Origin: Patescibacteria group bacterium
GTDB taxonomy: Bacteria; Patescibacteriota; Microgenomatia; UBA1400; PJMF01
Direction of reading: 5' to 3'
Assembly (NCBI GenBank): GCA_040879165.1
Contig: JBBDKV010000017.1
Span: forward strand, 23,739 to 87,738
DNA length: 64,000 bases
Below are positions 6,876-61,989 of this stretch, piece after piece (positions within the stretch are counted from its first letter, which is position 1; each line of letters starts with the position of its first letter). The notes beneath the pieces were generated by a model. The model saw only the letters and a program-made list of their open reading frames with translations, was not told where the DNA came from and searched no databases. The position numbers and the translations under genes were made by a program.

Positions 6876-6911
6876 AAGCCAGGAGGAATTTGGGCAGATA
6901 TAGACCTGCTA

Positions 6912-7430: not shown

Positions 7431-7565
7431 ATATTTTAATTGATATATCAATACGTGGGTAGAGTACGGGAGCTTGTTAGCAATCTTTTTTCATACTATA
7501 TTGAAGATCAAAATAATATGAACATCTCATACTAAACTAAACCCGAGCCAAGTAAGATACAGAAT

Positions 7566-8171: not shown

Positions 8172-8187
8172 ATTACTTCTTCCTTTT

Positions 8188-9183
8188 TTATTTTAACACT
8201 TTGAGTAAAGATGCGATTTGTTTTGCAACTGCTTCAACCACAGGGACTGCAACAGAGTTCCCAAATTGCCTGTACATTTGTGTCCTAGAAACAGGCACTT
8301 TGAAATCCTTAGGAAATCCCATAATAGCCTTACATTCATTTACAGTGAGAAGTCTCAGCCCAGTTTCTCCATCTTTGACAAATGTTCCAGTAAGTCTTTG
8401 TATCTTGTGGTAAGTCGAAACAAGAGTTTTTACTTGTATCCTTGAACTTTTATCAATGATCTTTGGTCTACCATCATCTTTTTTGAACAGGTAGCTTTCT
8501 TGCAAGTGCTTCGATATGGAATATCCAGAAACGTCTTGCTCAAGAAAATCATTTATGTATGATTTTTCCACGCCACCTGTAGGGAAAGTGAAACTTCTCT
8601 CCTTGAGAAGGTCTTTTCTAAATCCAACAATGTAAATCCGCTTTCTAAATTGTGGCACTCCAAAATCAGAAGCATCTAAAACTTTAGTAAAAACTTTATA
8701 CCCAGCTTCATCTAAGGAGTCTAAAATAACTTGAAATGTTCTTCCACTATCGTGACTGACTAAACCTGGCACATTTTCTAATAAAAATGCTTTGTTTTTT
8801 TTATTCTCGATAATTCTCAGTACGTCATAAAATAGAGTACCCTGAGTAGCATGTAGAAACCCTTGTCTCTTGCCAATAGAACTGAATGGTTGACAGGGGA
8901 ATCCGCCTACTAATACATCAAAATCTGGAATTTCTTTCTCATCTATCTTTGTTATATCACCATGTGGAATCTCTCCAAAATTAGCCTCATAGGTTTTTTG
9001 ACTATGCTTGTCCCACTCTGAAGAAAAAACACATTCTCCCCCAGCATTTTCAAATGCAATTCTAGTGCCTCCAATCCCAGCAAATAAATCAATAAACTTA
9101 AAATCACCAACAGTTGATCTTTTATTCTGGTCTTCAAACAGACTAGGTGCACTCATTTTAGATAATTTTTTTGTGTTACTCAT
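8188..9183 (-). CDS. DNA (cytosine-5)-methyltransferase
   Basis: Motif I FIDLFAGIGG, motif IV GGFPCQPFS and motif VI ENVPGL, with target-recognition and C-terminal motifs present. Confidence 0.9.
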   Translation of the reverse strand: MSNTKKLSKMSAPSLFEDQNKRSTVGDFKFIDLFAGIGGTRIAFENAGGECVFSSEWDKHSQKTYEANFGEIPHGDITKIDEKEIPDFDVLVGGFPCQPFSSIGKRQGFLHATQGTLFYDVLRIIENKKNKAFLLENVPGLVSHDSGRTFQVILDSLDEAGYKVFTKVLDASDFGVPQFRKRIYIVGFRKDLLKERSFTFPTGGVEKSYINDFLEQDVSGYSISKHLQESYLFKKDDGRPKIIDKSSRIQVKTLVSTYHKIQRLTGTFVKDGETGLRLLTVNECKAIMGFPKDFKVPVSRTQMYRQFGNSVAVPVVEAVAKQIASLLKVLK

Positions 9184-9207
9184 ATCAAAGACTCGTTTTT
9201 GAAAAAA

Positions 9208-9408
9208 CTATGTTTCCAATTTTCGTTTATCTAAAAAGTTTTGCAAATCATCTTCCTTGACTCGCAGTTCTTGCTCCAATTTGTAGGCGGGCAGTTTTTT
9301 CGTTTTGATATAGCGGTAAATGGTCATCTTGCTCACTTTGAGAGCTTGGGCGACTTCTTCAATGGTGAGGAGCGTCTGTGTTTGCACTATATTGATAGTA
9401 TCACTCAT
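9208..9408 (-). CDS. Small HTH DNA-binding protein (AlpA/excisionase-like), possible controller of the R-M operon
   Basis: 66 aa. LTIEEVAQALKVSKMTIYRYIKTKKLP is a classic HTH. It sits directly upstream of the methyltransferase on the same strand. Confidence 0.6.
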   Translation of the reverse strand: MSDTINIVQTQTLLTIEEVAQALKVSKMTIYRYIKTKKLPAYKLEQELRVKEDDLQNFLDKRKLET

Positions 9409-9463
9409 TCACATTTGTTTACAAGGGTGATATAGTTTTTCTCAAGAATTATCAAATATAAGT

Positions 9464-10621
9464 ATGAAACAAAGTTTTTTCCATCAAGATTTTTTGAAAC
9501 ACGTTGATCTCAATCTTTTCAACCAGTATTTACTTTCCAAGAATCTAACTGAAATAAGTACTCCAGATAGTAAGGCTGACAAAGCTCAAGCAATGTCTGA
9601 CTATTTAGTCAGTTTGACCGATGCGGACGGCGATATTGTGGTCAATGATCTTATGGTAGTGAGAGATTTGTCATCAGACGGCGGTGTGATTGCCATTATG
9701 GAGCTATCGGAGGAAGCTACTTTCAAGCAAGCCCTCTCGGAGCTGACAAGTAACATCAATCGGGTGCTATATTGCTTACTATACAAACCAGATTTGATTG
9801 AACCAGCTCTCAAGTTGAAGCAAATCACAGCGACTGAAAACTTCCACGTTCGCAGGGTGACAAAAAGCGTTGAGGCTGACCAAGTATTAGCCAAGCTCCC
9901 TGAGTTCAAACTTGAGTTGACTGCTTTCTTGCAGAAAGAGGAAGCAAAAGGAGCGAACTGCCAGATAGATAGCTATCAATTCAAAGATAGAGTTTGCTTT
10001 TTTGCCTATCCAGAAGATCATCCCAAATCATTGAATCTTTATCAGAACGGGAAGCTCAATCCTACAGTAGTGCATCCTAGCTTTGAGTTGGTTTTTGTCT
10101 ACTATCCAGAAATGAAACAGCTAGAAATAGCAACCCGAATGAGAAGCAAAAAATTACAAACTCTGTTCAACCTTTTCAATCGTGCTGTGCTAGACGACTC
10201 TCAGCCAGTACCAAACAACCAAGACACACTCAACCTCGATGTGTTGCTTACTGATGGATTTAGCTTCATTTTTGACCCGAGCTACCAAGTTGATTCTATA
10301 TGCGTAACTCAGATTCGCCTTGACTACAAGTACAACCGCAAGAAACGGTTTATCACCCATGTTGATGAGGGTAACGGCATGGAACAAATCTTAGAGGAGT
10401 TAAAATATCGCAATTTACGAGGTGATAGTCTACAACACTATGTGGTTGCCCAAGCTACCATCAAATTGCGTTTCAAACAGTTTGGACGAAGCAATCGGGT
10501 CACCACACTCTTGACCGCACCAGACAAAATAAAGCTCAATGAAACAAATCCTCACCAACTCGCCAAGAAGTGCCTACAGGACTGGAAAATCATCAATGAG
10601 CCACTCACAGACGCTGAATAA
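9464..10621 (+). CDS. Hypothetical protein, 385 aa, no recognisable domain
   Basis: Long uninterrupted ORF with a plausible RBS. Its 3' end overlaps the start of the next ORF, indicating translational coupling. Confidence 0.5.
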   Translation: MKQSFFHQDFLKHVDLNLFNQYLLSKNLTEISTPDSKADKAQAMSDYLVSLTDADGDIVVNDLMVVRDLSSDGGVIAIMELSEEATFKQALSELTSNINRVLYCLLYKPDLIEPALKLKQITATENFHVRRVTKSVEADQVLAKLPEFKLELTAFLQKEEAKGANCQIDSYQFKDRVCFFAYPEDHPKSLNLYQNGKLNPTVVHPSFELVFVYYPEMKQLEIATRMRSKKLQTLFNLFNRAVLDDSQPVPNNQDTLNLDVLLTDGFSFIFDPSYQVDSICVTQIRLDYKYNRKKRFITHVDEGNGMEQILEELKYRNLRGDSLQHYVVAQATIKLRFKQFGRSNRVTTLLTAPDKIKLNETNPHQLAKKCLQDWKIINEPLTDAE

Positions 10622-11675
10622 GCTACTAGATGCAGGTATCAACATCAAGGACTTTCAAATAAGTGCTAAAGATTTAGACCAACAATTTAGGCAGGTTGGT
10701 AACATCTTACTCAATCTTGGCTGGTTTACCCAAGATTATGCCACTGGTTATCAATGCTCGCAGTGCGGTGCTGTTCATGAGGTGGTGGCTTTCAATGGCA
10801 AGTATTTTATTGGCTGTGATGTGGACGGAGATTCTGGTTTAGAGACACTGAGCAAAGATGATCTATTGATCTATCGTTTTTCAGCCACGAAGTTCTTTGA
10901 ATGGTTGCAACAATCTTTCTCCTTGCAGGGTAATGTTGAATCCACTGACGATAGGGTATTACTTGGTCAGGGAACGGTAAACGGCAAGCAACGTCTGTTT
11001 ATATTCAGCCATGAAAACTCACCCGAAGCAAGAAAAGTACTCTGTCAGAAATACCTTATCAGTCAGCCTTTGATTCTCTACCTCAGCACCATTCACGATA
11101 ATCACAATCAGGGATATGACATCAACTTGGCTCATTATCTAGTAGTGCAAGAAATGGGTTTGAGCATCGATACAAACTCAGCTTTGAGTGCGATTGCAGA
11201 TTCCATACCGCCGTTTGCAGGTGAGGCTCAGACAAACTCAAGCATTTATGCCATTGAATTGAAGCTTGTGGGTGACAAAATTGTGCTAGTTGGCACAGCT
11301 CTTGGTGGTTCGTATCCAGCGTTCAAAGCCAAGAAGAAAAGAAGCACTGCCATGTCTAGATTGTTGAGAACCCTGCTCAATTTGCATGAGAACGATAAGG
11401 AAACTACCTCTGTAATTTACAAACAAAGCGTGCTTGAGGCGAACTACATTGACCCACGAAAAAACAAGCTAAATGACCTTGCAGAAATTGATCTCAGTCA
11501 AGACAAGCGACCACTGAGTGAACTCTGCTCACTCTTACTACCATACTTACTCGCACACCGACACCACAAAGACGACGGCTTAGTGGTCGAGTTCAAACCC
11601 GCTTTGTCGCAAGAGAGCTGGAACAGACTCCCAGACTCAGAAAAACAGAAGATTCTAGCTTCAAAGGCTAATTAG
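10539..11675 (+). CDS. Hypothetical protein, about 360-378 aa, with an N-terminal CxxC motif
   Basis: Long ORF. CSQCGAVHE suggests a zinc-ribbon-like element. The likely true start is Met at 10592 (MSHSQTL), overlapping the upstream ORF by about 30 nt. Confidence 0.5.
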   Translation: MKQILTNSPRSAYRTGKSSMSHSQTLNKLLDAGINIKDFQISAKDLDQQFRQVGNILLNLGWFTQDYATGYQCSQCGAVHEVVAFNGKYFIGCDVDGDSGLETLSKDDLLIYRFSATKFFEWLQQSFSLQGNVESTDDRVLLGQGTVNGKQRLFIFSHENSPEARKVLCQKYLISQPLILYLSTIHDNHNQGYDINLAHYLVVQEMGLSIDTNSALSAIADSIPPFAGEAQTNSSIYAIELKLVGDKIVLVGTALGGSYPAFKAKKKRSTAMSRLLRTLLNLHENDKETTSVIYKQSVLEANYIDPRKNKLNDLAEIDLSQDKRPLSELCSLLLPYLLAHRHHKDDGLVVEFKPALSQESWNRLPDSEKQKILASKAN

Positions 11676-11837
11676 CCAAACCTCGTCAATCCTCAGTTTG
11701 TGCAATTACTTGCATTTAGCAACGTCCATCAGTTGTGTTTTTTAGTACTTTCTGCGTTTGCGTGCATTTAGCGTTTTGGATCAAAAACCTAGGTGACAAT
11801 CCTCTTGCGAACATAAAAATTAGCAATGAGGATAAGC

Positions 11838-12086
11838 ATGAAAGACGCACACAATTACTTCACTACTTACGATCTGAACCTGTCAGCCGTATTGGTTTCA
11901 CAAAACTTCATTTTAGAAGAAATAGAAAAACCTGAAAGCGGGAAAGCTCTTTTTTACTTCAAAAAAAGCGATGCTCTGCTAGAGACTATTGATCGCTACT
12001 GGAAAAACCAGCTCCAAATCTCCCCTCAAACCTTATTTACCAGTTTGAAATCCATCAAGAACCGCCTGTACAGCGGTTGGAAGTAA
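11838..12086 (+). CDS. Small DUF5659-like protein typical of CPR and phage mobile elements
   Basis: MKDAHNYFTTYDLNLSAVLVSQNFILEEIEK...ALFYFKK resembles the small DUF5659 family. Assignment from memory, not a search. Confidence 0.35.
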   Translation: MKDAHNYFTTYDLNLSAVLVSQNFILEEIEKPESGKALFYFKKSDALLETIDRYWKNQLQISPQTLFTSLKSIKNRLYSGWK

Positions 12087-12286
12087 AAGTCATGTTGAGT
12101 CGTGCCTCAGTGACAAAGTTCCAGCAAATCTACTTCCAAGAGTACGGCATCAATCTAGATGAGCAGACTGCCTACGAGCTGGCGAATAACCTCGCAAACC
12201 TGTACCGCAGTGTCTACCTGCCAGACACAAAAAATATAAGTCAAAAATATGAAACGAACACATCAACTCAGACGAATCAAAACTAA
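12077..12286 (+). CDS. Hypothetical small protein
   Basis: 69-aa ORF overlapping neighbours by a few nt in a compact same-strand array. Confidence 0.25.
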   Translation: MEVKVMLSRASVTKFQQIYFQEYGINLDEQTAYELANNLANLYRSVYLPDTKNISQKYETNTSTQTNQN

Positions 12287-12302
12287 GAAGTCTTACTCAT
12301 CT

Positions 12303-12668
12303 ATGGAGTTGGCTAACTTGCTTGGTGTTCATGTTCAAACAGTACGATCATGGGCAAGTAATGGTTTAGAACCCCTCAGCCCAAACGCTCACAGACCTTT
12401 GTTTTTAGGTCAGACAGTGAAGTCCTATCTTTCCAAACTGCAAGACGCTCGCAAAGTGAAGCTCCAAGTGGGTGAGTTCTACTGCCTACGGTGTCGAGTC
12501 GCCATCACGCCAGAGTTAGTGATTGAGGTTGATCGTCATGTCACCATCGGCAAGCACAAAGACTCGATTTTACTTACCGCCCACTGTCCACAGTGCAACT
12601 GCCCCGTCAATAAGTTTTCTAGCCGAATATCAACCAACCAGAAAGGAAAATATGCTCCTGACGCATAA
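12303..12668 (+). CDS. HTH (MerR/excisionase-like) protein with a C-terminal Cys4 zinc ribbon
   Basis: MELANLLGVHVQTVRSWASNG is an HTH. CLRC...CPQCNC gives four Cys. It lies upstream of the integrase genes. Confidence 0.5.
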   Translation: MELANLLGVHVQTVRSWASNGLEPLSPNAHRPLFLGQTVKSYLSKLQDARKVKLQVGEFYCLRCRVAITPELVIEVDRHVTIGKHKDSILLTAHCPQCNCPVNKFSSRISTNQKGKYAPDA

Positions 12669-12996
12669 ACGGTACGAAGTCCCTGGCGACTGGTATCAAC
12701 CCAAACAGCAACTCCTCACCAAGCCGAGTGTGATGTTGGCTGAGTACTACGAAACATCATCAAGCTCTGGTGATTGGAGTGGGTACTTCTTGCAGAAAAT
12801 CGGTCAAGCCTATCACCTGATTTTATTCACTCAGGAAAACCTTTATCCAGAGGATGGCTTTGAGTTGATGACAGGTGTGGTAATCCACACATTCAAATCC
12901 GAGCCAAACAAACCCGATGTTGCAAAGGTCATTATCTCAGTACTTGAACACTCTCGTAATCACTCACTTAGTAATAACGCAGAAATGAAAGGATAA
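12652..12996 (+). CDS. Hypothetical protein
   Basis: The ORF starts at ATG 12652, overlapping the stop of the previous gene. No motif recognised. Confidence 0.35.
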   Translation: MLLTHKRYEVPGDWYQPKQQLLTKPSVMLAEYYETSSSSGDWSGYFLQKIGQAYHLILFTQENLYPEDGFELMTGVVIHTFKSEPNKPDVAKVIISVLEHSRNHSLSNNAEMKG

Positions 12997-13148
12997 CTAT
13001 GTTGAATCACGCTCAATTATCGTTTTTAGCAGTAATACTCTGGGTTGGAATAACCTATCTGGCAACTGCCAAGAAAGAGTTTCCCTGGCATCTAGTAATT
13101 TTGGCAGTAATTATCACACTCGAATTACTCTCGAAATAGAAAGGCATT

Positions 13149-14264
13149 ATGTCAAAAACCAAAGACAAAAACGAACGCATCAAACGCAAGTATCTCAACT
13201 GGCTACAAGAGGCTGAGGGATTTTCAGAGAAGTCGATCACGGCGGTAGAAAAAGCTCTGTGGAAATATGAAGATTTTATCAAGGATTCAGACTACAGCAC
13301 GTTCAATCATAAGCAGGCTGAACAATTCAAGAAATATCTGACAACCAACAAAAATAAGGTCAGTAACAAAATCCTCTCACTGAGATCGCAATATCACATC
13401 CTCAGGCACGTTCGCAACTTCTTGACTTGGTTATCTGGACAGCTTGGCTATAAGTCCCGTATCTCAACCTACGATGTCCAGTACTTGCAACTGAGCAAAA
13501 AAGATCGGCGGGTTGCGACCTCTGCCTCACTTCCAAAGTATCCCACCCTTGAGCAGATCAAACAGCTTTGTAGCTTTTCAGTTCAAACTGAGCTTGACCA
13601 GCGAGATCGAGCGTTGATAGCCTTTACTGCTCTAACAGGCATGAGAGATCAAGCGATTGTTACCTTGCCACTTGGTTGTTTTGACCAAGAGAAAATGCTC
13701 GTGCAACAGCTCCCAAGCAAAGGTGTTCAAACCAAGTTCAGCAAGGACATTTATACTACTCTTTTTCAGGTAGATGAAACGCTGGCTGGCTACTTTTTGA
13801 AGTGGTACGCTTATTTGAAAACGGAGAAGCATTTTGGGCTGGAAGATCCGATATTTCCGAGTACAGAGGTAGGTTTTGTTAGTAAAAATCACCATGCCTT
13901 TACCCCTATTGGTATTAGTAAAGAGTTCTGGGCAGATACCAATCCGATGCGAAAGATTTTTCAGGAGCGAAGCAAGCAAGCGAACGTGCCTTACTACACC
14001 CCCCATAAGTTCAGGCACTTCATCATCAATGAGGCTCAGAAACACATCACGAGCATTGAACAGCTCAAGGCTCTCAGTCAGAACCTGGGTCATGAAAACA
14101 TAAGCACCACTTTTCATGGCTACGGAGCAATTGATACTTATCGAGTCAATGAGTTGGTCAGTTCTATTGATTTTTCAGGACTTCCCAAGAACCAAGCAGA
14201 AGAAGCTCAACTTGAAAGAATCGCTGATCTTGTCGCTAAAAAATTAGGAAGAAATGAGCTATAA
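13149..14264 (+). CDS. Tyrosine recombinase / phage-type integrase
   Basis: The C-terminal catalytic region has HKFRHF and LGHENISTTFHGYGAI, the R..H..R..Y signature. Confidence 0.85.
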   Translation: MSKTKDKNERIKRKYLNWLQEAEGFSEKSITAVEKALWKYEDFIKDSDYSTFNHKQAEQFKKYLTTNKNKVSNKILSLRSQYHILRHVRNFLTWLSGQLGYKSRISTYDVQYLQLSKKDRRVATSASLPKYPTLEQIKQLCSFSVQTELDQRDRALIAFTALTGMRDQAIVTLPLGCFDQEKMLVQQLPSKGVQTKFSKDIYTTLFQVDETLAGYFLKWYAYLKTEKHFGLEDPIFPSTEVGFVSKNHHAFTPIGISKEFWADTNPMRKIFQERSKQANVPYYTPHKFRHFIINEAQKHITSIEQLKALSQNLGHENISTTFHGYGAIDTYRVNELVSSIDFSGLPKNQAEEAQLERIADLVAKKLGRNEL

Positions 14265-14294
14265 TGTTAGTGTTGACCCAAGTTATAGTGGTGC

Positions 14295-16040
14295 ATGAAA
14301 AAAGGCAGTTCTGCCAACGTATGCACTATGTTGGGTCAACCAGGACTGTCTTTTTATATGAGAATAAGAAAAACACTTACTAGCCTCAAGCCAAGAAAAT
14401 CTGGTCACCCCAAGCAGAATCGGTACATTCTATATGCCCGTAAGTCTACTACCTCAGAAGACCGTCAAGTTGCTTCGATTGAGTCCCAGATCGAAGTGAT
14501 GAAAGAGGTAGCTCGTGAGCATGATTTGGAAGTTTCAGAGGTATTGAGTGAAGCAGGTTCAGGCTTCAAGATAGGTAGACAAGCGTTCAATGCCATGATC
14601 GAAAAGATCGAAAGCGGTGAAGCTGATGGCATCATTGTCTGGAAGCTCTCACGCTTATCTCGTAACCCTGATGATGCGGGCAAAATCATGGGCTTACTGC
14701 AACGAGGTGAAATCAAGCACATTCGCACCGCAGACCGCAACTGGTATCCAGAAGACAACGTGATGATGATGTATGTTGAGTTTGGTATGACCAACCAGTT
14801 TAGTCGTGATCTGAGTTCAGACACTCGCCGAGGATTAGTCAAAAAAGCTGAGCGTGGTTGGTTGCCGAACGCCATTCTCCCACTTGGCTATATGCACAGC
14901 CCATACAAAAAGTTAGGTGATGAAGAAATTATCATTGATAAAAGCCGTTTTGACTTGATTCAAGAGGGTTTGAAGCTGGTAGCTTCTGGACAGAAAACAC
15001 CTGTTGAAGCTCATGGCTATTTAGTTACTCAAGGTGTTGTGGGAAAAAGAAGTGAAGCATTACCTAAAAGCACTTGGTACAAGATGTTAGTTGAACCACT
15101 ATACGCAGGGACTTTTGAGTATCCAATAGGTAGTGGTCAGTTTTATGACTCCAAAGCACCCAGAGCCATAGAACCGACTGAGTACGATGCCATTCAAGTT
15201 GTTTTAGGTAGAAAAGATAAGCCTCGACCCAAGACTCACTTTTTGCCTTACACGGGTTTGATGAAGTGCGGTGAGTGTGGTTGCTCCATTACTGCTGAAA
15301 AGAAGCGGAAAGTGCAGAAAAATGGTAACGTGCATCACTATATCTACTATCACTGTACCAAGAAAAAAGGCGAGTGTGGTCAGCCGTGTACGCCTGTTGA
15401 TACACTTGAGAAGCAATATAAGTCCATTTTGAAACGTATCAAAATCCCCTTAGCCTTTCACGAATGGGCTATTGATGAGATCAAATATGACCAAGAAAAA
15501 GTCATCAGGGATCGTGACACCAGCCTACAACGAACTCGAACAAACTACGATGACTGCCTGAGTGAGATTGATAACTTGGTAAAGAAATACCTTGAGGGGA
15601 AAGTGCCAGAAGACTACTATGATCGCAACCTTGCCAAGCTCAATAAAAACAAAAAGACATTGGCGAAAATCTTGGAGGGTATAGACAAAGGTGTCGATGA
15701 AAACTTGGAAAAAATCGATAAAGACCTAGATTTTGCCGTAACAGCCAGAAGACGCTTCAACCAAGGCAACGACTCCAAACGTCGAGAGATCATTTCCTAT
15801 TTAGGCTCGAACCTCATCCTCAAAGACCATTCACTCGGCATTGAGCTGAGAAAACCGCTGGAATTGGTGGCAGAAATTGCAGAAGAAGTCAATGCTGTTG
15901 CAGAAAAGTTCGAACCTCTAGAAAATGCTGATAATTCGGCACAATTTAAGTTGTATTTGTCTGAAAATCCTGCAATGGGTGGTATACCGGACTTGAACCG
16001 GCGACCTCCGCTGCCACAGAGCGGCGCTCTAACCAACTGA
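14295..16040 (+). CDS. Large serine recombinase (resolvase domain + recombinase domain + zinc ribbon)
   Basis: YARKSTTSEDRQVASIESQ carries the catalytic Ser. GIIVWKLSRLSRN is also present. The CGECGC...YYHCTKKK zinc ribbon fits this family, as does the 581-aa length. The 3' end overlaps tRNA-His. Confidence 0.85.
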   Translation: MKKGSSANVCTMLGQPGLSFYMRIRKTLTSLKPRKSGHPKQNRYILYARKSTTSEDRQVASIESQIEVMKEVAREHDLEVSEVLSEAGSGFKIGRQAFNAMIEKIESGEADGIIVWKLSRLSRNPDDAGKIMGLLQRGEIKHIRTADRNWYPEDNVMMMYVEFGMTNQFSRDLSSDTRRGLVKKAERGWLPNAILPLGYMHSPYKKLGDEEIIIDKSRFDLIQEGLKLVASGQKTPVEAHGYLVTQGVVGKRSEALPKSTWYKMLVEPLYAGTFEYPIGSGQFYDSKAPRAIEPTEYDAIQVVLGRKDKPRPKTHFLPYTGLMKCGECGCSITAEKKRKVQKNGNVHHYIYYHCTKKKGECGQPCTPVDTLEKQYKSILKRIKIPLAFHEWAIDEIKYDQEKVIRDRDTSLQRTRTNYDDCLSEIDNLVKKYLEGKVPEDYYDRNLAKLNKNKKTLAKILEGIDKGVDENLEKIDKDLDFAVTARRRFNQGNDSKRREIISYLGSNLILKDHSLGIELRKPLELVAEIAEEVNAVAEKFEPLENADNSAQFKLYLSENPAMGGIPDLNRRPPLPQSGALTN

Positions 16041-16052
16041 GCTAATACCACC
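15977..16052 (-). tRNA. tRNA-His (GTG)
   Basis: Manual cloverleaf. G-1 plus acceptor GTGGTAT/ATACCAC with C73. D-arm GCTCAGTTGGTTAGAGC. Anticodon loop CTGTGGC. T-arm GCCGG-TTCAAGT-CCGGT. Confidence 0.85.
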
Positions 16053-25776: not shown

Positions 25777-26334
25777 CTATTCAGCTGTTTTCACCCCTTC
25801 TTTTCCTACCTGAATAATCTGCGTTAGCTCAATCAACTCATCCACCATCCGCTCAGCCCGCTCCAACACTTTCTCATCCTTTAGCTGCCCAGCATCATCA
25901 AACAACTCTTTAACAAAGGGAAAATGCAGATTTTTGCCCGAGACAATCATGCCAAAATTACTCAAAATAGGAAGCAGTGACTCCACCGCCCGCACACCAC
26001 CAAACTGACCGCTTGAAACGCTGGCTACGAGAACCGGCTTGTGTTTATAGGTAGCAAATTCTGTATCAAGGAGCGTCTTGAATTTACCTGGAAAACCATG
26101 ATTGTACTCGGGAAAAACGAGTACAAATGCATCAGCAGCCGTTGTTATGGCATGAAATTCTGGTATCTGTTGTTTTTCATCATACTCAATCTCAAAATCT
26201 CTCACATCAACCGAAACTGGAGACACGTTCGGATTTTTCTCAAGAATTGATTGCAGCAGTGCAGCTACTTTGGCGGATTGACGCTCAGGTCGCGAGGCGC
26301 CAAGGATAATTGGGATGTTGAGTGGAGTGGGCAT
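25777..26334 (-). CDS. NAD(P)H-dependent FMN reductase (flavodoxin-like fold)
   Basis: IPIILGASRPERQSAKVA at the N-terminus and FPEYNHGFPG motifs. 185 aa. Confidence 0.7.
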   Translation of the reverse strand: MPTPLNIPIILGASRPERQSAKVAALLQSILEKNPNVSPVSVDVRDFEIEYDEKQQIPEFHAITTAADAFVLVFPEYNHGFPGKFKTLLDTEFATYKHKPVLVASVSSGQFGGVRAVESLLPILSNFGMIVSGKNLHFPFVKELFDDAGQLKDEKVLERAERMVDELIELTQIIQVGKEGVKTAE

Positions 26335-34117: not shown

Positions 34118-34636
34118 TCATGGCTTCCAATAGTGTGGCATGGATATACTGCATTTCTTCGCTGGGCTCCCATGATGCATCGTCATCACCTTCATCCGTG
34201 TTCCATTCAGCTTCACCTTCGGTCTGGGGTTATGTTTGAACACCCACCAAAGGTTATTCCACGGGTCAGTAAAGCGAGAAAACACATCTCCATAAAAATC
34301 AGTGGGCTCGGTAACAATCTTTGCTCCCAATTTTTTAGCTCGCTTAAGCGTGCCGTCGACATCATCGACATATACCCTTAGCAAACTAGGCGTGAATGGC
34401 CTTCCTGGCTTAGTATCGCCCACCATTACGATTGAGTCTCCGATTGCAAGTTCTGAATGGATGAGTAATCCATCATTGTCAACTGTATGGGCTGCGGGGT
34501 CTTCGGTGGCACCAAATACTTCCTGCAAAAATTCTATCAGTTTAGAAGCGTCTTTGGTGATAATGAACGAGTTAGCGGTATTATGACCTTTTGGTATGTT
34601 TGGTTTTTTCATACTATTTTCCATTGTAAGCTTCAT
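34118..34636 (-). CDS. VOC family protein
   Basis: VOC-like core (FIITKDASKLIEFLQEVFGA...HSELAIGDSIVMVGD). The C-terminal tail may reflect a frameshift. Confidence 0.45.
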   Translation of the reverse strand: MKLTMENSMKKPNIPKGHNTANSFIITKDASKLIEFLQEVFGATEDPAAHTVDNDGLLIHSELAIGDSIVMVGDTKPGRPFTPSLLRVYVDDVDGTLKRAKKLGAKIVTEPTDFYGDVFSRFTDPWNNLWWVFKHNPRPKVKLNGTRMKVMTMHHGSPAKKCSISMPHYWKP

Positions 34637-35528
34637 TTAACTTAACAATATCAAACTTCTTCATCTTAATAAACGCTTCTGTTACTCTATCAATTTTTTC
34701 TTGATCACCACACGTCATCATTTCATTCATTATAGATGGAACGATTTGCCACGACACCCCGTATTTATCTTTCAACCATCCACATTGTTCAGATTCAGGA
34801 GCTGCAGAAAGCTTCTCCCAGTAGTAATCAATCTCTTCTTGAGTGTCGCAATGTACAACTAGAGAAATACCTTCATCGAAAGCAAATTTGTGCATATCAC
34901 TACTTGCGTCGGTTGCAGTAAACCGCTGACTTTCCAAAGTAAAATCAGTAAACATAATCGACCCTTCCTTACCACCCTCTGCTTCAGCACCCGCCGGATA
35001 ACGAGCAACAATCCCTCGCTTCGAATTCTTAAATACTGAGAGATAAAAATCGGTTGCCTCTTCTGCCTTGTCACAACCTTCTGTTACAAAGAGGAAAGAA
35101 GGAATGACAGCTGGACGATCTTCGCCATCAGGGTCGGTTAAAATAAGTTGCCACGATACTCCATACTTATCTTGAATCCAGCCATACTTCTTACTGAATG
35201 GATACTCACCAAGTTCCATTGCTACCATTCCGCCATCACTAAGTTTTTTCCAAATCTCATCTAACTCTTCTTCGGCATTATCCATTTTAGATGGATCAAA
35301 ATTAACCATAAATGAAATGGATGGGTTTGGCTTGAAATCAGGCCCTGCACTAATGGCCATAAAGTCTTGACCCATGACATTGAAAGTCATGATTTCACAG
35401 TCACCGGAAGGAGTGTTGTTTAAAATGGTACTACTGCTTACTTTTGAATTTGGAAAGACAGAAGCGTAAAATTCCGCGGCTTCTTTTGCTTGTGTATCAA
35501 ACCAAATATGGGGGATTATTTTTTGCAT
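34614..35528 (-). CDS. Tandem PhnB-like VOC-domain protein (3-demethylubiquinone-9 3-methyltransferase-like fold)
   Basis: Two repeats each start with the PhnB-like signature (IIPHIWFDTQAKEAAEFYASVF and the second-half equivalent). Confidence 0.55.
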   Translation of the reverse strand: MQKIIPHIWFDTQAKEAAEFYASVFPNSKVSSSTILNNTPSGDCEIMTFNVMGQDFMAISAGPDFKPNPSISFMVNFDPSKMDNAEEELDEIWKKLSDGGMVAMELGEYPFSKKYGWIQDKYGVSWQLILTDPDGEDRPAVIPSFLFVTEGCDKAEEATDFYLSVFKNSKRGIVARYPAGAEAEGGKEGSIMFTDFTLESQRFTATDASSDMHKFAFDEGISLVVHCDTQEEIDYYWEKLSAAPESEQCGWLKDKYGVSWQIVPSIMNEMMTCGDQEKIDRVTEAFIKMKKFDIVKLNEAYNGK

Positions 35529-48780: not shown

Positions 48781-50592
48781 TTATAACACCTTCTTCTGGT
48801 ACAAGTCACCATCCTCAAAGCCACGCTTGCGGTAGTATTCTCGAGTACCAATTGCAGAAATAACTGCTAAGCTATCAAAGCCCGCAGCTCTACTCAAGAC
48901 TTCGGCTTCTTGTAATAAACGGGTACCAAATCCAGCATGCTGAGATTTACCCAATGCTGATTTTCCTAGTTGCGCCAACTTGCCATAGACGTGAACTTCT
49001 CGGATAATAGCCGTGTTTTCAAGCTCAGTAACGAAACCAGGCTCAGTTGGCAAACTTAATCGCAAAAATGCCACCAACTTGTCGTCTTCAGTCACAAATT
49101 CTAGGAATTTCTCAGTGCTTGAACTTGTTTGGTAGTCATAGCATCTTAGTGAAACTTGTCCTGGATTCACAACCAGATCTCTTACCTCACGAGCGCGGAT
49201 GTCTCGAGAAGTAAAGCCCTTTTTAGCCAGTGACTGCTCAGCAATTTGACGAAAATTAGTCAGCTTATTGCCTTCCACAATATCAGTGGATGGAATATCG
49301 CGAATCACTCGGGTCAAACGACAATATTCTGGAGTCACCTCAAAAGCGTGCTCCAACACCGAAAGTAATTCCTCATAGGTATAGGTCTGCCACTTGCCCT
49401 CTTTGTGATACTGCATCAATTCAGCAGTACCAATCAAGGAACAAGGGTACACCTTCAACTCGTCAGGCCTGAAGTCTGGATCTGAAAATAGTAGCTGGTA
49501 ATCTTTCTTATCAGCTTCCACACTGGAGCCGTACAAGTTAGCCATCCAGTGAGCGTGAATTTTAAAACCGGCTTGACGCAGCAGCTTGATTGCTCGACGA
49601 GAAGACGCAACATCGTGACCGCGTTTATTTTTCTCAAGCACGCTATCCTGCAAACTCTGCAAACCTATTTGTGTTTTCGTGCAGCCTAAACGACGAATAC
49701 GCAACACTTCAGCCTTAGAAATATTATCTGGCCTCGTCTCAATCACGAGCCCAACACAACGAACATTCGCCGACTCATTCAAATCCTGCTGTGCTTTCAA
49801 CTCTGACCACTCAGCCTGTTGATACAAATGAAAACCACCCGTAATTTCTGGTGCGACATAGAGTTCAGAAACCGTATGATTGTAGGTTTTATCAATTTTG
49901 ACTCCATTGATTTGATGTTGCTGGAAGGCCTTTTTATTCTCCATCGGATCGTTACTCATGCTAATAGTTTTATTTTTTTTCAGTGCTGCGCGCATTTCGT
50001 CATACCGTATCAATACCTGAGAGCGCTCATCACGCTTGCCAAAGTCATTCAGTGCACGAAAACATTCCTCGATAAACCAAATCTGATACGCTTCCGGATA
50101 ATACGACCAAGTACCACCCAGCACGATAATTTCCACTTTATCAACATCATGACCAATGTTTTGCAACGCTTGCAATCGATTGTAAGTCTGCAAATAGGGA
50201 TCAAAATAATTTCGCTCGGCACGCTGCGCGCCGGGCTCATCCGCCAAATAACTCTTGGGCATCCGAATATCATTCGGACAAAAAATACATTTGCCTGGGC
50301 AGGGAAACGGTTTAGTGAGCACTGTCACTGGTGCCACACCAGACATCGTTCTCATTGGCTTCATCTTAATTCTATCCAACAGATCTGAGCCCAAATCCGC
50401 GCGTTTTTTTTCAGTCAATCCACGATACACAGAAACCAGCTGGTTTTTGGTGAAAAACGAGCCATCAGCTTTGGGAAACTGCTTTAATAACTGAAAATAA
50501 CGTCTTTTCTTGAACGGCTGCTCAACTGCTAAAACCTTTAGCATCGCTAGTCCCTGTGCCGCATCCTGATTAGATAGCTTGGTATATATCAT
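48781..50592 (-). CDS. Elp3-like radical SAM / GNAT acetyltransferase (tRNA wobble-uridine modification family)
   Basis: CPGKCIFCPN radical-SAM cysteine motif. C-terminal GNAT fold (GFGTRLLQEAEVLSRAAGF...YYRKRGF). 603 aa. Confidence 0.7.
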   Translation of the reverse strand: MIYTKLSNQDAAQGLAMLKVLAVEQPFKKRRYFQLLKQFPKADGSFFTKNQLVSVYRGLTEKKRADLGSDLLDRIKMKPMRTMSGVAPVTVLTKPFPCPGKCIFCPNDIRMPKSYLADEPGAQRAERNYFDPYLQTYNRLQALQNIGHDVDKVEIIVLGGTWSYYPEAYQIWFIEECFRALNDFGKRDERSQVLIRYDEMRAALKKNKTISMSNDPMENKKAFQQHQINGVKIDKTYNHTVSELYVAPEITGGFHLYQQAEWSELKAQQDLNESANVRCVGLVIETRPDNISKAEVLRIRRLGCTKTQIGLQSLQDSVLEKNKRGHDVASSRRAIKLLRQAGFKIHAHWMANLYGSSVEADKKDYQLLFSDPDFRPDELKVYPCSLIGTAELMQYHKEGKWQTYTYEELLSVLEHAFEVTPEYCRLTRVIRDIPSTDIVEGNKLTNFRQIAEQSLAKKGFTSRDIRAREVRDLVVNPGQVSLRCYDYQTSSSTEKFLEFVTEDDKLVAFLRLSLPTEPGFVTELENTAIIREVHVYGKLAQLGKSALGKSQHAGFGTRLLQEAEVLSRAAGFDSLAVISAIGTREYYRKRGFEDGDLYQKKVL

Positions 50593-50717: not shown

Positions 50718-51488
50718 ATGAAAACGGCAACCGCTATCAAACTCAACCAGCTCAATCAGCACTTCTATAAAAAAGTGGCTGAACACTTCCACACTTCACG
50801 CCAATTTTATTGGCATGGCTGGCGACAGCTGTTGCCGCACATTAAAAACAATCTCAATTCCAAGACTCAACTAAAAGTGCTCGATGTGGGATGCGGTAAC
50901 GGCAGATTTGGCAAGTTTCTTTTTGACACATTGCCCGAACAAGACATCATCTATCACGGTATCGACTTTAATCAGTCGCTACTCGAACACGCACAACAAA
51001 ATCTCAAAAAAACTACACTAACGTTTGAACTGCATCAGCTTGATCTGGTTGAAAAACTTATTTCAGACACACTTTTCTCTACAAAAGTGAAAAAATACGA
51101 CCTCATTGTGTTGTTTGGTGTCCTGCATCACATTCCTAGCTACCAGCTGCGCAAACAACTTGTCCAGAATCTTTCAGCACAAGTAGCTGAGACAGGAATA
51201 CTCTGCTGCACACTCTGGAGATTTATCAATCCTGACAATGAAAAGAGCACCGCCACAGTTGACTCGTCCCAGGTAAATATAGACCAAAACGAACTAGAGC
51301 CACATGATTATTTTATACCTTGGAAGCGGGGAGTGCCTGCCATTCGCTACTGTCATTTTACTCCTGATTTTGAAGAGCGTCGACTCATTACGGCTTCTGG
51401 ATTAAAGCTGAGGGCAACCTTTGAAGCAGACGGTAAAGAGAGTAAAGGCAATCGCTACTTAATCTTGCAAAATGACAACGAAAGATAG
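50718..51488 (+). CDS. Class I SAM-dependent methyltransferase
   Basis: Motif I VLDVGCGNGRFG. Confidence 0.75.
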   Translation: MKTATAIKLNQLNQHFYKKVAEHFHTSRQFYWHGWRQLLPHIKNNLNSKTQLKVLDVGCGNGRFGKFLFDTLPEQDIIYHGIDFNQSLLEHAQQNLKKTTLTFELHQLDLVEKLISDTLFSTKVKKYDLIVLFGVLHHIPSYQLRKQLVQNLSAQVAETGILCCTLWRFINPDNEKSTATVDSSQVNIDQNELEPHDYFIPWKRGVPAIRYCHFTPDFEERRLITASGLKLRATFEADGKESKGNRYLILQNDNER

Positions 51489-51503: not shown

Positions 51504-53051
51504 ATGCAGTTATTTTTAGCACTTCTACTCATTATTCTATCTTTGACTGGTATTGTTGATGCTAGTTACATAACCTACCAAGATCTTACCAATCAAATTC
51601 CACCATGCAGCGAAGAATTTCAATGTGAAAAAGTCTTAACAAGTGAGTATGCTGCCATCGGACCGATTCCGGTATCCGGCTTGGGTATAGTCTATTACCT
51701 AGCTGCTTTTATCTTGGCAATCTTTCATTACTTACAGCTTGATCTCAAAAAATTGCCACTCCTGCGCCAGCTACCATATCCAGTCCGAGCACTTGACGGC
51801 TTGTTAGTGGTAACGGCCACTGGCTTTCTTTTCTCGATCTACCTGGTCGTATTGATGGCATTCATTATACAAGGCTGGTGTTTATACTGCCTGATTTCTG
51901 CGGGCATTTCCACTGCTCTGTTTATCATCACACAACTGTATAACTGGCTATATAGCTCTCATTCCAGTTTTCCAATCAAGGACTGTTGGTATCGACTGAG
52001 CCATTGGGGCTACAAAACACTCAGTAAACCATTACTTTTTTTACTCAATCCAGACCGCGTTCACCACGCCGTTCTAGCACTTTCTCCCCACCTCTCCGCA
52101 CAAGGAGTGTTCAAACAAAAACTGCGTTGGTTCTATCATTTTAAGCACCCAAGCCTTCAGCAATCGCTGGCAGGCATTCCTTTTGCTAATCCAGTAGGCT
52201 TACCTGCGGGGTATGACTACAATGGCGACCTAACTGACCTGACCCCCGAACTGGGATATGGCTGGCACACCGTGGGAACTGTTACGTTTCAACCTTATCA
52301 GGGAAATAAGCCACCCTTTTATACTCGATTACCTCAGAGTGAGGGCTTAATCGTCAATAAAGGGCTCAAGAATGACGGTGCAAAAGCAATAGCTCAAAAA
52401 TTAGCTGGCAAGCCCTTCAAAATCCCCACTGGCATTAGCATCGCCAGCACCAATACATCATTTCAAAGCACCAAAGAACAAATACTCGATATTCTCCAAA
52501 GCTTTATTATTTTTGAAACTTCCTCCGTACAACACAGCTATTATGAATTAAACATCAGCTGCCCCAATGTTTTTGGCGGCGAGCCATTTACCACGCCTCA
52601 GCGACTAGAGTCTCTCTTATCAGCACTAGACAAACTCTATCTTTCCAAGCCCACTTTTATAAAAATGCCAATTGATCAATCCACCCAAGAAACTGAAGCT
52701 CTACTTAAAACCATTACAAACCACCAGGTTGCAGGTGTCATTTTCGGCAACTTAACCAAGGATAAAAACAATGCAGCAATTACCCAGCAGGAGCGAAAAA
52801 TCTGGGCAAATAGTGCAGGCAACGTCAGTGGCAAAGCAACTTTTGAACGCTCCAATCAATTGCTTTCCCTAGCTAAAAAAACACTGCCTCCTGGAATGGT
52901 CATTATCGGCACTGGAGGAATTTTTACCCCAGCAGATGCAGACAGAAAAATATCACTCGGAGCTGATTTAGTGCAACTGATCACGGGCAGCATCTTTGAA
53001 GGACCGCAGTTAGTCGCTCAGATCAATTTGTCGCTAGCCGCTAAAAACTAG
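51504..53051 (+). CDS. pyrD: VKOR-domain / dihydroorotate dehydrogenase (quinone-type architecture) fusion protein
   Basis: VKOR hallmarks occupy the N-terminal 150 aa: loop Cys pair [11 protein letters not shown] and TM Cxx[18 protein letters not shown] domain follows ([44 protein letters not shown]). Confidence 0.75.
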
Positions 53052-53572
53052 ACTAATGACTCAACAAACGCGCCTAAGAAGTAGGCTACAAATGCAGCAA
53101 TCGCTCCAATGCTCAACATTTCAAAACCATACTTTAACCAATTGCCTGGAGTCACCAATACCCGCAGACTACCCACTAAAAAGAGGGCGCACCCCGTTGC
53201 TAATACTGATAACGGAAACTGCCAAGTTGCGGAAACTTGATTACCAGTAAGTTGAATCACGTATGGCAATAAAGGTAGTGAGCCGGCGAGCATAAAACTC
53301 ACAAAAGTAATGACGCTCGTTTCCATTGAGCGAATTTTTGGTGACATAGTACCAGATTTTTTGAGACGTTCAGCTGAGCGCTCTCCCAGATAATCACCAA
53401 CCGCCATACTCATCGCGTCAGCCACCATGCTAGCAATTCCTAAAATAATGATAACGCGCGCACTCAAACCAGCGCCAACCGCACCAGCCACTACCGCGAA
53501 GGTCGTAATAATACCATCATTAGCACCAAGCACCATGGCCTTGACTTTTTTTGCTGAAAGCAGTTGAAACAT
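53048..53572 (-). CDS. VIT1/CCC1 family iron/manganese transporter
   Basis: [15 protein letters not shown] signature. 174 aa with a multi-TM C-terminus. Confidence 0.7.
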
Positions 53573-54607: not shown

Positions 54608-54925
54608 ATGGAGGCTTTTATGAACCACAAATTAATTGCAATTAGTCTAATTTTTGTTTGTTTTGTTGCCGCCTTCGCTTACTGGGATAGCGTCTTTACT
54701 GTTTTTATGCCAGAAAAGGGAGTAGAGCAAACAGAATCAACTGAGCTGCAAGTTGAAGCCTCGCTCTGTGCTGCTACCCCAGATAGTGAGTGTTGCCTAG
54801 AATCCGAATCAACTGTTCTTGAGAATGGCTACATGCTCGCTGATGCTGGTAATTGCCCTGAAGGACACACCTCAAACCAACTCCGCTGCACAGAAAGCTT
54901 GGTGTGGTGTGAGCCTGCTATATAG
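54608..54925 (+). CDS. Small secreted or membrane-anchored Cys-rich protein
   Basis: An N-terminal hydrophobic signal/anchor. Seven Cys in the C-terminal 55 aa (CAATPDSECCLE...NCPEGH...LRCTESLVWC). Confidence 0.4.
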   Translation: MEAFMNHKLIAISLIFVCFVAAFAYWDSVFTVFMPEKGVEQTESTELQVEASLCAATPDSECCLESESTVLENGYMLADAGNCPEGHTSNQLRCTESLVWCEPAI

Positions 54926-60729: not shown

Positions 60730-61989
60730 CTATCTTGCCACAATTCTTAAGATTGCGTCATCTCCCCGCCTGACAGAACCTCGACCATCTCGATTGCTGG
60801 TACCAATATATATCGCGCCATCAGGACCTACCTCCACCACACGCACTCGTCCCACATCGACTTGTGGCATTTGTTCATGAGCAACCACTTGGGTGGGATC
60901 ATCAAGGTCAAAAACTACTCGATATAAGCCCGTGCCACGCAGACCCCCAAACAAAAAACTACCTCTCAGCTCTGGAATCAAATCAGCATCATAAAATGCA
61001 GCCGTAGCTGGCGCTACAGCCGGTGTATAGACTAGCAAACCCGTTTCCATACCTTCACCAGTCTGTTCGTGCGAGATCACTGGCCACCCATAGTTGCTAC
61101 CAGGTTGAATCAAATTAACCTCATCACCACCAGCAGGACCGTCAAAGACGCTTGGTCCATGTTCAGTAGAGTAGAGCTCATTTGTCAGAGGGTGCCATGC
61201 CAAACCTTGGGGATTGCGGTGACCAAAGCTATAGATCTCTGAAGCAGGAAAAGGGTTGTCATCCGGAATACTCCCATCCAAATTGAGTCTAATGATTTTG
61301 CCTGCCAGAGTATCCATATTTTGTGCTAAGTCACGTTCTAGAGCATCACCAACTGTTATAAACAGCTTTTCATCTGGACTGATCGCCAACTCACAGCCTG
61401 CATGATTGCGAGCAGAGGGCAGTTTATCAATGATTTCGTCAACAACTTCCACACTTGAGCCTTGGTCACGCGCAGCAATCACTTTATTGAAAATACCAGT
61501 TGGAGATTGATAGCCATAGCAAATATAGAGCAACTGATTTTGTTCATAATCAGGATGCGCGACCATGCCCATCATGCCAATTTCGCCATTACTCTGAACT
61601 TCATCCACCACCAGTAGTGGCGACTCTGTAAGTACACCTGCCACTACCTCACGAACTCTACCCGGTCGTTCAGTAATCAACATTCGCTCCGACCCAGTAA
61701 AAACAATACTCCAAGGAACCTCTAGACCTTCAACAACTGTTTCAATCTCTAAGTCTATATTTTCAGCAGAAATAAATGATTGTCGATAATCCTCAGCGCT
61801 GGTTGCCGCCATCTTGTCCTGATCGTCCTGGGCAGATTTTGACGAAGAGAGCTGTTCAGCCAATCGAGTGCTTCCGGGAATACTCACAGGCTCAGGTCGG
61901 TACAATGCCAAGTAATCAATTAACCAAACACCAAGCACTCCCGCAAGACAAAGCGTGGTACCGATAATGGCTTTTTTTGTGACTGTCAT
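60730..61989 (-). CDS. PQQ-dependent sugar dehydrogenase (soluble glucose/sorbosone dehydrogenase-like beta-propeller), membrane-anchored
   Basis: HRNPQGLAWHP and GSNYGWP motifs typical of the YliI/sGDH family. N-terminal TM. Confidence 0.7.
   Translation of the reverse strand: MTVTKKAIIGTTLCLAGVLGVWLIDYLALYRPEPVSIPGSTRLAEQLSSSKSAQDDQDKMAATSAEDYRQSFISAENIDLEIETVVEGLEVPWSIVFTGSERMLITERPGRVREVVAGVLTESPLLVVDEVQSNGEIGMMGMVAHPDYEQNQLLYICYGYQSPTGIFNKVIAARDQGSSVEVVDEIIDKLPSARNHAGCELAISPDEKLFITVGDALERDLAQNMDTLAGKIIRLNLDGSIPDDNPFPASEIYSFGHRNPQGLAWHPLTNELYSTEHGPSVFDGPAGGDEVNLIQPGSNYGWPVISHEQTGEGMETGLLVYTPAVAPATAAFYDADLIPELRGSFLFGGLRGTGLYRVVFDLDDPTQVVAHEQMPQVDVGRVRVVEVGPDGAIYIGTSNRDGRGSVRRGDDAILRIVAR

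Follow-up and report, generated by a model that had tools for sequence, protein, structure and literature searches.

In a stretch of 64,000 nucleotides from a Patescibacteria group bacterium (contig JBBDKV010000017.1; we call this whole stretch the window), we found a gene that joins, in a single open reading frame (ORF), a vitamin K epoxide reductase-like (VKOR) membrane domain and a dihydroorotate dehydrogenase (DHODH). The host of the gene is a metagenome-assembled genome (MAG) of the Patescibacteria, or Candidate Phyla Radiation (CPR), and the encoded protein has a 100% identical counterpart at NCBI, a MAG protein of "Patescibacteria group bacterium"; the chain runs from a four-helix VKOR with four redox Cys directly into a class-2-type flavin mononucleotide (FMN) DHODH. 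It is a textbook view that both VKOR/DsbB enzymes and class 2 DHODHs draw on the quinone pool of respiration. Both halves belong to known families; the novelty lies in their conserved pairing, the coupling of which is unexplained. The explanation towards which we tentatively lean is that two quinone-reducing modules, placed on opposite faces of the membrane, would share a scarce and probably acquired quinone. The gene and the elements of its product that carry the argument are given below with their coordinates in the window; conservation refers to the 120 best homologues and, where stated, to 81 non-redundant related loci.

51504..53051, + strand: VKOR-DHODH fusion gene, an ORF with an ATG start, 515 aa plus stop
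51525..51932, + strand: VKOR domain, residues 8-143, from Pfam and from the alignment to the Synechococcus VKOR (4NV6/3KP9)
51507-51587, 51672-51734, 51789-51869 and 51882-51953, + strand: the four transmembrane (TM) helices of the VKOR, residues 2-28, 57-77, 96-122 and 127-150, in the AlphaFold2 model
51606..51626, + strand: loop Cys pair, Cys35 (51606-51608) and Cys41 (51624-51626), invariant in 120/120, equivalent to Synechococcus C50/C56
51879..51890, + strand: CxxC motif Cys126-Leu-Tyr-Cys129 (WCLYC) at the outer end of TM4, invariant in 120/120, equivalent to Synechococcus C130/C133
51969..52136, + strand: N-terminal helical domain of the DHODH, residues 156-211 (helices 156-178, 183-199 and 201-211), from AlphaFold2 and the NCBIfam/PDB alignments
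52062-52064, + strand: His187, aligned with E. coli His19, invariant in the 120 homologues and the 81 loci
52155..53039, + strand: DHO_dh TIM-barrel FMN domain, residues 218-512, from Pfam and Foldseek
52218..52220, + strand: Tyr239, aligned with E. coli Lys66, the class 2 active-site Lys
52326..52328, + strand: Arg275, aligned with E. coli Arg102, invariant in the 120 homologues and the 81 loci
52356..52361, + strand: Asn285-Lys286 in the substrate loop VNKG, aligned with the canonical NRMG (E. coli Asn111-Gly114)
52560..52562, + strand: Cys353 in the motif N350-I-S-C353-P-N355, equivalent to E. coli Ser175, L. lactis DHODA Cys130 and DHODB Cys135
52749..52754, + strand: Asn416-Leu417, the Asn equivalent to E. 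coli Asn246 and the Leu replacing the conserved Thr247

That the two domains form one protein, as an earlier note made on the bare sequence had proposed, is borne out by a Pfam search in which both exceed their curated cutoffs by far within this one ORF: VKOR (PF07884) matches residues 8-143 (E=1.7e-24, 86.9 bits vs a cutoff of 27.5, profile positions 2-133 of 134) and DHO_dh (PF01180) matches residues 218-512 (E=2e-42, 145.8 bits vs a cutoff of 27). The reverse strand under the ORF is closed by many stops. Both domains are also found in each of the best homologues (120/120, 48-77% identity), across which C35, C41, S47, W125, C126, C129, H187, R275, K286, N350, C353, N355, K387 and N416 are invariant; such invariance of the VKOR Cys and of Cys353 argues that the pattern is not due to chance. 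AlphaFold2, run on the whole chain with an alignment of 120 sequences as input, returned a mean predicted local distance difference test (pLDDT) of 94.7 and a predicted template modeling score (pTM) of 0.91, a whole-chain value suggesting that the two domains sit in a fixed mutual arrangement; in the model, a linker of 5 residues leads from TM4 to the N-terminal helices of the DHODH, and the barrel follows after three helices.

In the VKOR half, the loop Cys pair and the transmembrane CxxC (GWCLYC) that the note had singled out both align with the catalytic Cys of the Synechococcus VKOR, whose PDB sequence aligns to residues 6-153 of the fusion protein; the conserved Ser47, downstream of Cys35/Cys41, matches the loop Ser of the same enzyme, and Trp125, just before the CxxC, is invariant in 120/120 homologues. 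Cys126/Cys129 is presumed to be the quinone-reducing disulfide. The Synechococcus VKOR-thioredoxin (Trx) fusion (3KP9, 4NV2/4NV5/4NV6) and the VKOR/DsbA pairs of the M. tuberculosis type share the four-helix core, the loop Cys pair, the TM4 CxxC and the Ser, and the role is presumed to be the same too, namely re-oxidising a Trx-fold partner with quinone as the acceptor. The fused partner is another matter: in Synechococcus it is a periplasmic Trx-like domain attached via a fifth TM helix, whereas our protein lacks such a helix and has as its partner a flavoenzyme on the cytoplasmic side, itself a quinone reductase. No DsbA/Trx-like partner gene recurs near the related loci, where exported proteins with WCPxC were found in L025 and L083 only.

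Positive-inside statistics over the 120 sequences gave a Lys+Arg count of 0.76 for Cys-loop 1, which is acidic, 4.4 for loop 2 and 3.4 for helix α1 of the DHODH, whose richness in Lys and Arg fits a cytoplasmic interface. Since the Cys loop is poor in these residues and the two other segments are basic, the VKOR Cys are predicted to face outward and the DHODH to face the cytoplasm, which is the canonical orientation of both families. An inert anchor can be dismissed for the VKOR half, every catalytic residue being invariant.

The DHODH half is built on the class 2 scaffold. Its top Foldseek matches are class 2 DHODHs (target-normalised TM-score 0.85-0.89); each of its top ten NCBIfam models describes a quinone-dependent DHODH, and as the alignments begin at residue ~170, they take in the class-2-defining N-terminal helical domain; and its best PDB sequence matches are the class 2 enzymes of A. 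baumannii, M. tuberculosis and E. coli (E=1e-36 to 1e-30). Class 1 NCBIfam models score 42-54 bits (E 1e-14 to 6e-11) vs 259 bits for class 2, and class 1 enzymes among the PDB sequences come at E about 1e-5; membership of class 1 is ruled out by this overall similarity together with the presence of the N-terminal quinone domain. Judging from the alignments, residues 156-211 are the class 2 element for membrane association and the quinone tunnel. The tunnel-type segment pointed out in the note does match the class 2 pattern GNxKPRLFRL; the positions of His187 and Arg275 are hallmarks of the class 2 quinone site, the latter corresponding to Arg136 of human DHODH in the numbering of the literature.

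The likeness to E. coli PyrD (1F76, 7T5K; reference sequence taken from the MG1655 genome) and to human DHODH extends over the TIM-barrel FMN fold, the N-terminal tunnel domain and the His19/Arg102 pair. As in E. coli PyrD, the equivalents of Asn172, Asn177, Asn246 and Lys217 are retained, as is the GxGG phosphate site; the FMN-site residues Lys387, Asn350/355/416 and GTGG are invariant. Unlike the E. coli enzyme, the fusion protein has Cys for Ser175, Lys66 moved to position 286 with Tyr239 in its former place, a shifted Asn111 loop, Leu for Thr247 and Ile493 for Tyr318, and its N-terminus is covalently continued from the VKOR.

Of these changes, the Cys at the catalytic base had been flagged at the outset, and alignment to class 2, DHODA and DHODB enzymes puts Cys353 exactly at that position (the L. 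lactis DHODA, L. lactis DHODB and human DHODH references were checked to be identical to PDB 1DOR, 1EP1 and 3U2O, respectively). It is invariant in 120/120 homologues and 81/81 loci. An exhaustive phmmer search with the DHODH half against 1.84 billion cluster representatives (50% identity) gave 398 matches at E<=1e-30, and of the best 150 of these 398 representatives, fused or unfused, six lack a Cys in the column of the catalytic base; a Cys specific to the fusion is, thus, ruled out. It even occurs in relatives that are otherwise canonical class 2 enzymes, with the pattern HKRRMNCNKNTY. The best 150 representatives sort as follows, with 14/150 unclassified, mostly fragments without one or more of the checked columns:

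Type A, 36/150: Y239, K286, C353, L417 and I493; fused or unfused; the subfamily of the fusion protein
Type B, 71/150: K239 with Y/A/F at 286, Cys, L417 and I/V493
Type C, 23/150: canonical class 2 at all checked positions but for the Cys base
Type D, 6/150: canonical Ser, for example in an Elusimicrobiota protein

Type B includes a Magasanikbacteria protein and another VKOR fusion (P0168), and one type C example comes from a diderm genome with LptE and TonB; the gene contexts of these sister types gave no clue to a pathway. The Cys base marks a wider class 2 lineage, probably one independent of respiration, and did not arise through the fusion. Cys-base class-II enzymes have been described in anaerobic fungi, together with respiration-independent pyrimidine synthesis, although the Cys was neither strictly necessary nor sufficient for anaerobic activity (Bouwknegt et al. 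2021, PMC8520639). Like our protein, the fungal SjUra9, DbUra9 and ArUra9 put a Cys base on a class 2 scaffold in organisms living without respiration; SjUra9 and DbUra9 retain the quinone-associated residues, as here, and ArUra9, without the N-terminal domain, uses free flavins (PMC8520639). Unlike the fusion, these are eukaryotic enzymes with no VKOR and no reported Lys/Tyr swap (PMC8520639). Class 1A DHODHs (L. lactis PyrDA, 1DOR/2DOR, and the fumarate-dependent trypanosomatid enzymes) also have the Cys base, in a motif ELNLSCPNV that is close to the ELNISCPNV found here; they are, however, soluble, without the N-terminal helical domain or the His/Arg quinone site, and the overall similarity to class 1 is far weaker (E about 1e-5 to 1e-12 vs 1e-36 to 1e-77 for class 2). 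A class 2 DHODH with a Cys base is, thus, known in kind but far commoner in uncultivated bacteria than the literature suggests.

Among the other pocket residues, Lys286 and Gly287 are invariant in 81/81 loci, and position 285 is Asn in 78/81. Over the 150 representatives, the residues at positions 239 and 286 are (K,Y) in 53, (Y,K) in 36, (K,M) in 22 and (K,A) in 15, and never (K,K) or (Y,Y). Read from these alignments, Lys286 would be the active-site Lys in a new place, after a reciprocal swap from K239/Y286 to Y239/K286; as the swap is strictly reciprocal, the ancestral active site appears to have been kept under selection. A dead or altered enzyme that has lost its active-site Lys is ruled out on the same ground. 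Leu417 is likewise invariant in 81/81 loci; the Leu in place of Thr247 is common to types A and B, and so is the shift of the Asn111-loop Asn by one residue. The substrate of the DHODH half is, on these residues, probably, though not certainly, dihydroorotate.

The pairing itself is widespread and confined to one part of the bacterial tree. A scan of one genome per species, with two conserved family motifs as patterns, shows that at least 529 species-level genomes encode relatives with these motifs. Whether the fusion is clade-specific was a question raised by the earlier note, and it is: among the best 80 loci, every one with an informative name belongs to the Patescibacteria, mostly to the Microgenomates group (Pacebacteria, Woesebacteria, Roizmanbacteria, Gottesmanbacteria, Levybacteria or simply "Patescibacteria"). 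Many third-party annotation (TPA) MAG records among these loci (L007-L086) bear titles such as "uncultured Pseudomonadales", "uncultured Gammaproteobacteria" or "Limisphaerales" on a CPR-type gene; given the CPR-type synteny and the clustering with named Patescibacteria, those titles look wrong. Using local hidden Markov models of the VKOR and DHODH halves, we counted three arrangements in the 81 non-redundant loci:

Fused, 53/81 loci: VKOR and DHODH in one ORF
Split, 6/81 loci: VKOR encoded by its own gene no more than 1.4 kb away, with variable gene order
DHODH alone, 22/81 loci: a protein of ~370-380 aa, with no VKOR within 10 kb

In the split loci, the VKOR gene lies directly upstream (L039, L048), directly downstream (L085), in divergent orientation (L037), 1.3 kb upstream (L033) or 0.8 kb downstream (L055). 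A linkage that survives such changes in gene order argues for a functional connection. The signature residues are identical across the fused, split and lone forms, which interleave on a crude distance tree; the interleaving fits repeated fission and fusion, on a tree too unreliable to count events. Other architectures exist among the Cys-type DHODHs: P0148 is a fusion of a PAP2 membrane phosphatase and a DHODH, and P0138/P0271 join the DHODH to a cytidylyltransferase-like domain. The relatives with varied architecture (P0148, P0138/P0271, P0245, P0168 and P0143) include further VKOR fusions, one of them of type B. A relative of 705 aa from Magasanikbacteria has a C-terminal extension of 360 aa that matches no Pfam family.

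These variants bear on a first alternative, which does without redox coupling: the VKOR would be a polytopic membrane anchor and a co-expression partner, and the two activities would be independent, with possibly different acceptors. The PAP2 and cytidylyltransferase-like partners of the same DHODH type speak for it, as do the lone DHODHs, which have only their own N-terminal helices, and the interleaving of the three forms on the crude tree. VKOR is, however, by far the dominant partner (59/81 loci), and anchoring does not explain why split genes stay adjacent in differing orders and orientations; moreover, both partners come from quinone-dependent families, and, to judge from the whole-chain pTM of 0.91, the domains are probably fixed relative to each other. 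On balance, we find this alternative rather improbable.

The direction in which the VKOR works was approached through the parity of Cys numbers, a test that follows the logic of Dutton et al. 2008. We took the non-overlapping ORFs of the related loci and of the window, calling export by a simple hydropathy rule. Among predicted exported proteins with Cys, 61 have an even and 23 an odd number (73% even), vs 190:256 (43%) for cytoplasmic proteins (Fisher p=3e-7). Collapsing homologues, with one random member kept per homologous cluster in 200 draws, left 69% even for exported (n~55) vs 40% for cytoplasmic proteins (n~253), with a median p of 5e-5 and a worst p of 5e-4. This even-Cys bias of exported proteins indicates that structural disulfides are apparently made outside the cell, and it supports the thiol-to-quinone direction for the VKOR half, which probably works as an oxidase, against a reversed VKOR.

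A reversed VKOR is what a second alternative would require: dihydroorotate oxidation would feed a quinone, and the VKOR would pass the electrons on to disulfides outside the cell, in the manner of DsbD/CcdA. The fusion does span the membrane, and the dihydroorotate/orotate couple is of low potential, so that, overall, electrons would run downhill to a DsbA-type disulfide. Transfer from quinol to disulfide is, however, strongly uphill for menaquinone and ubiquinone, we know of no VKOR that runs in reverse, and the even-Cys bias points to oxidative folding rather than to a reducing envelope. We regard such a reverse flow as very improbable.

The architecture, topology, conservation and linkage of the pair, the residue correspondences and the Cys-parity bias are results of the analysis itself. 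Coming back to the sharing of a quinone by two modules, what we infer for the substrates, the direction of electron flow, the use of quinone and its source can be put as follows. Outside, the VKOR would use Cys35/Cys41 to oxidise the thiols of an exported DsbA/Trx-like partner and hand the electrons over to Cys126/Cys129 and from there to a membrane quinone, regenerating the oxidant for the disulfides of exported proteins. Inside, the substrate oxidised by the DHODH domain would most probably be dihydroorotate, with Cys353 acting as the base and Lys286 lying in the pocket, and the electrons of the FMN would reach the quinone through the His187/Arg275 tunnel. The VKOR would, thus, reduce quinone in the outer leaflet and the DHODH in the inner leaflet, so that one small pool would be fed from both sides. 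Fusion or tight linkage may hold the peripheral DHODH at the membrane, beside its quinone-binding partner, and co-express both. The quinone is probably taken from other organisms, since CPR are reported without quinone synthesis: published reconstructions describe them as generally devoid of respiratory chains and of quinone synthesis and, in many cases, of nucleotide synthesis (PMC7143001, PMC7304191, PMC4508563, PMC3812714). Host-derived quinone has been proposed for CPR (PMC4508563), and VKORs are present in quinone-less Clostridia, which, it has been suggested, draw on exogenous quinone (PMC12453122). Possible routes for re-oxidation of the quinol would be O2, non-enzymatic oxidation or another enzyme. 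The note had spoken of an unusual electron-transfer architecture: quinone-reducing modules are indeed joined, but they make no donor-acceptor pair, and as both canonically reduce quinone, the fusion by itself is not an electron-transfer chain; the puzzle is the missing electron sink.

Several points weigh against this sharing. Fusions usually join consecutive steps rather than two users of one co-substrate. Why two enzymes that use up one oxidant should be fused is not strongly motivated, and the electron sink is left unexplained: both modules consume oxidised quinone, which brings no redox gain and needs a sink that CPR genomes are generally reported to lack (PMC7143001). Next come the 22/81 loci without a VKOR within 10 kb and the relatives joined to other domains, such as PAP2. 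On the side of the substrate, two canonical orotate contacts are altered in the alignment (the register of the Asn111 loop, and Thr247 to Leu), so that dihydroorotate is not assured, and its availability may be in doubt, as CPR are often reported without de novo nucleotide synthesis. A tblastn search with E. coli CarA, CarB, PyrB, PyrC, PyrE and PyrF found nothing in the 1.36 Mb around the 81 loci plus the window, a span of ~17 kb per genome that says little on whole genomes. Lastly, the scores stay under the NCBIfam equivalog cutoffs of the PRK05286 sub-models and TIGR01036 (NF003652, the closest, 239 vs 267 bits; NF003651, 259 vs 448; TIGR01036, 165 vs 200), which makes the DHODH half a member of a divergent subfamily.

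A sink is precisely what a third alternative, unlikely in our estimation, would provide. Here the DHODH-derived domain would have been repurposed to take up the electrons of the VKOR, giving a self-contained disulfide machine without a respiratory chain; electrons would go from exported thiols to the VKOR, to a captive quinone, into the DHODH tunnel, to FMN and on to a cytoplasmic acceptor, which could be fumarate, another activated C=C compound or O2, with Cys353 as the proton donor. Fusion and order-independent linkage are what is expected if one site makes what the other consumes. Class 1A DHODHs are Cys-type relatives that work reductively or with fumarate. CPR are reported without a respiratory chain or quinone synthesis and yet make extracellular disulfides, so that a sink is needed; the pocket is remodelled (Thr247 to Leu, the Asn-loop shift and the Lys/Tyr swap); there are no pyr genes nearby, and nucleotide synthesis is often absent in CPR. 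Fumarate has been implicated for a Cys-type class II enzyme (PMC8520639). There is also a precedent in giant viruses, where a VKOR sits beside a gamma-carboxylase-like epoxidase-desaturase (PMC13486548): as in the vertebrate vitamin K cycle, a VKOR is coupled to a second quinone/quinol enzyme. That partner, however, consumes the quinol made by the VKOR, whereas the DHODH of the fusion canonically makes quinol too.

Energetics pose the first difficulty for such a machine: FMN bound to DHOD lies at -242 to -330 mV (cited in PMC8520639), well under menaquinol and ubiquinol, which makes the quinol-to-FMN step uphill. The Cys and Leu417 are also present in many unfused relatives, diderm bacteria included, and are, thus, not adaptations to the VKOR; the Lys/Tyr swap points to a pocket that is ancestral and conserved rather than new; the 22/81 loci have no nearby VKOR; and a supply of fumarate is without support. 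That the fusion would be a complete disulfide generator, "DsbB plus menaquinone plus fumarate reductase" in one polypeptide with fumarate or O2 as the acceptor, we hold to be doubtful.

The immediate neighbours of the fusion gene in the window are three:

50718..51488, + strand: class I S-adenosylmethionine (SAM) methyltransferase (Pfam Methyltransf_12/31/25/23/11), 15 bp upstream of the fusion gene
48781-50592, - strand: a genuine bacterial Elp3, a radical SAM/GNAT tRNA U34 enzyme, divergent (TIGR01211, 480 bits vs a cutoff of 350)
53048-53572, - strand: VIT1-family protein (iron/manganese transporter-like), convergent, with a 4-nt overlap with the stop region of the fusion gene

The methyltransferase gene is probably co-transcribed with the fusion gene and lies directly upstream in 19/81 related loci; the block Elp3-methyltransferase-fusion recurs in 18-19/81 loci, all in one subclade, and the VIT1 neighbour is kept in about 12. 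A quinone methyltransferase was considered and is unsupported, the best NCBIfam match being UbiG at 43 bits vs a cutoff of 103, among many equally weak ones; searched against the PDB, the protein has weak generic matches only and no clear match to Trm9. It may go either with Elp3 (tRNA) or with the quinone enzymes. A Crp-family regulator (cNMP_binding + HTH_Crp_2) adjoins the VKOR and/or the DHODH in 10/81 loci (L026, L033, L037, L038, L055, L058, L071, L078, L085 and L086), and its presence across all three arrangements suggests regulated expression; an FNR-type Fe-S sensor is ruled out, as there is no Cys cluster.

By Pfam annotation, the 64-kb window holds no pyrimidine-pathway, Dsb/Trx or quinone-synthesis genes. 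It does hold a pyrroloquinoline quinone (PQQ)-type glucose/sorbosone dehydrogenase (GSDH) with a predicted N-terminal signal or anchor (60730-61989, - strand), an NADPH-dependent FMN reductase family protein (25777-26334, - strand) and a protein of the Pfam family "3-demethylubiquinone-9 3-methyltransferase", with a weak Glyoxalase-family match too (34614-35528, - strand); these three genes are no evidence of quinone synthesis. An ORF of 105 aa, 1.5 kb downstream of the fusion gene (54608-54925, + strand), has an N-terminal hydrophobic segment and 7 Cys, 6 of them after the segment; it has no NCBIfam match, and its product could be an exported disulfide-bonded protein. Farther away, a signalling cluster (1227-4438, + strand) is made of a response-regulator receiver protein, a FIST/FIST_C sensor and a PAS-containing histidine kinase, and the region ~4548-16051 looks like a mobile or defence island, with an AbiEii toxin, an HNH endonuclease, a C-5 cytosine DNA methylase, a tyrosine integrase and a large serine recombinase; at its 3' end, the serine recombinase gene overlaps a tRNA gene (15978-16051, - strand).

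We found no description of a VKOR-DHODH fusion in full-text searches of the literature, including under VKOR or DHODH combined with CPR lineage names; these gave nothing or papers on ferroptosis that are unrelated to it, and a dedicated VKOR phylogeny paper makes no mention of it; database annotation calls such proteins just "VKOR family protein" or "quinone-dependent DHODH". Two quinone clients are joined or adjacent in hundreds of CPR genomes, a group reported without quinone synthesis or a respiratory chain. For the DHODH family, Cys-base class 2 enzymes, held to be rare exceptions, turn out to form a large clade in environmental bacteria, to which the fusion family adds a clean example of a migrated active-site lysine. 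Should the DHODH-derived domain after all serve as the electron sink of the VKOR, this would be a new way to drive oxidative protein folding, with an enzyme of pyrimidine synthesis repurposed to that end. Being a single clonable gene, the fusion offers an experimentally tractable handle on extracellular disulfides in CPR, which are ultrasmall and depend on hosts, on the borrowing of quinone and re-oxidation of quinol and on the role of the lone DHODH.

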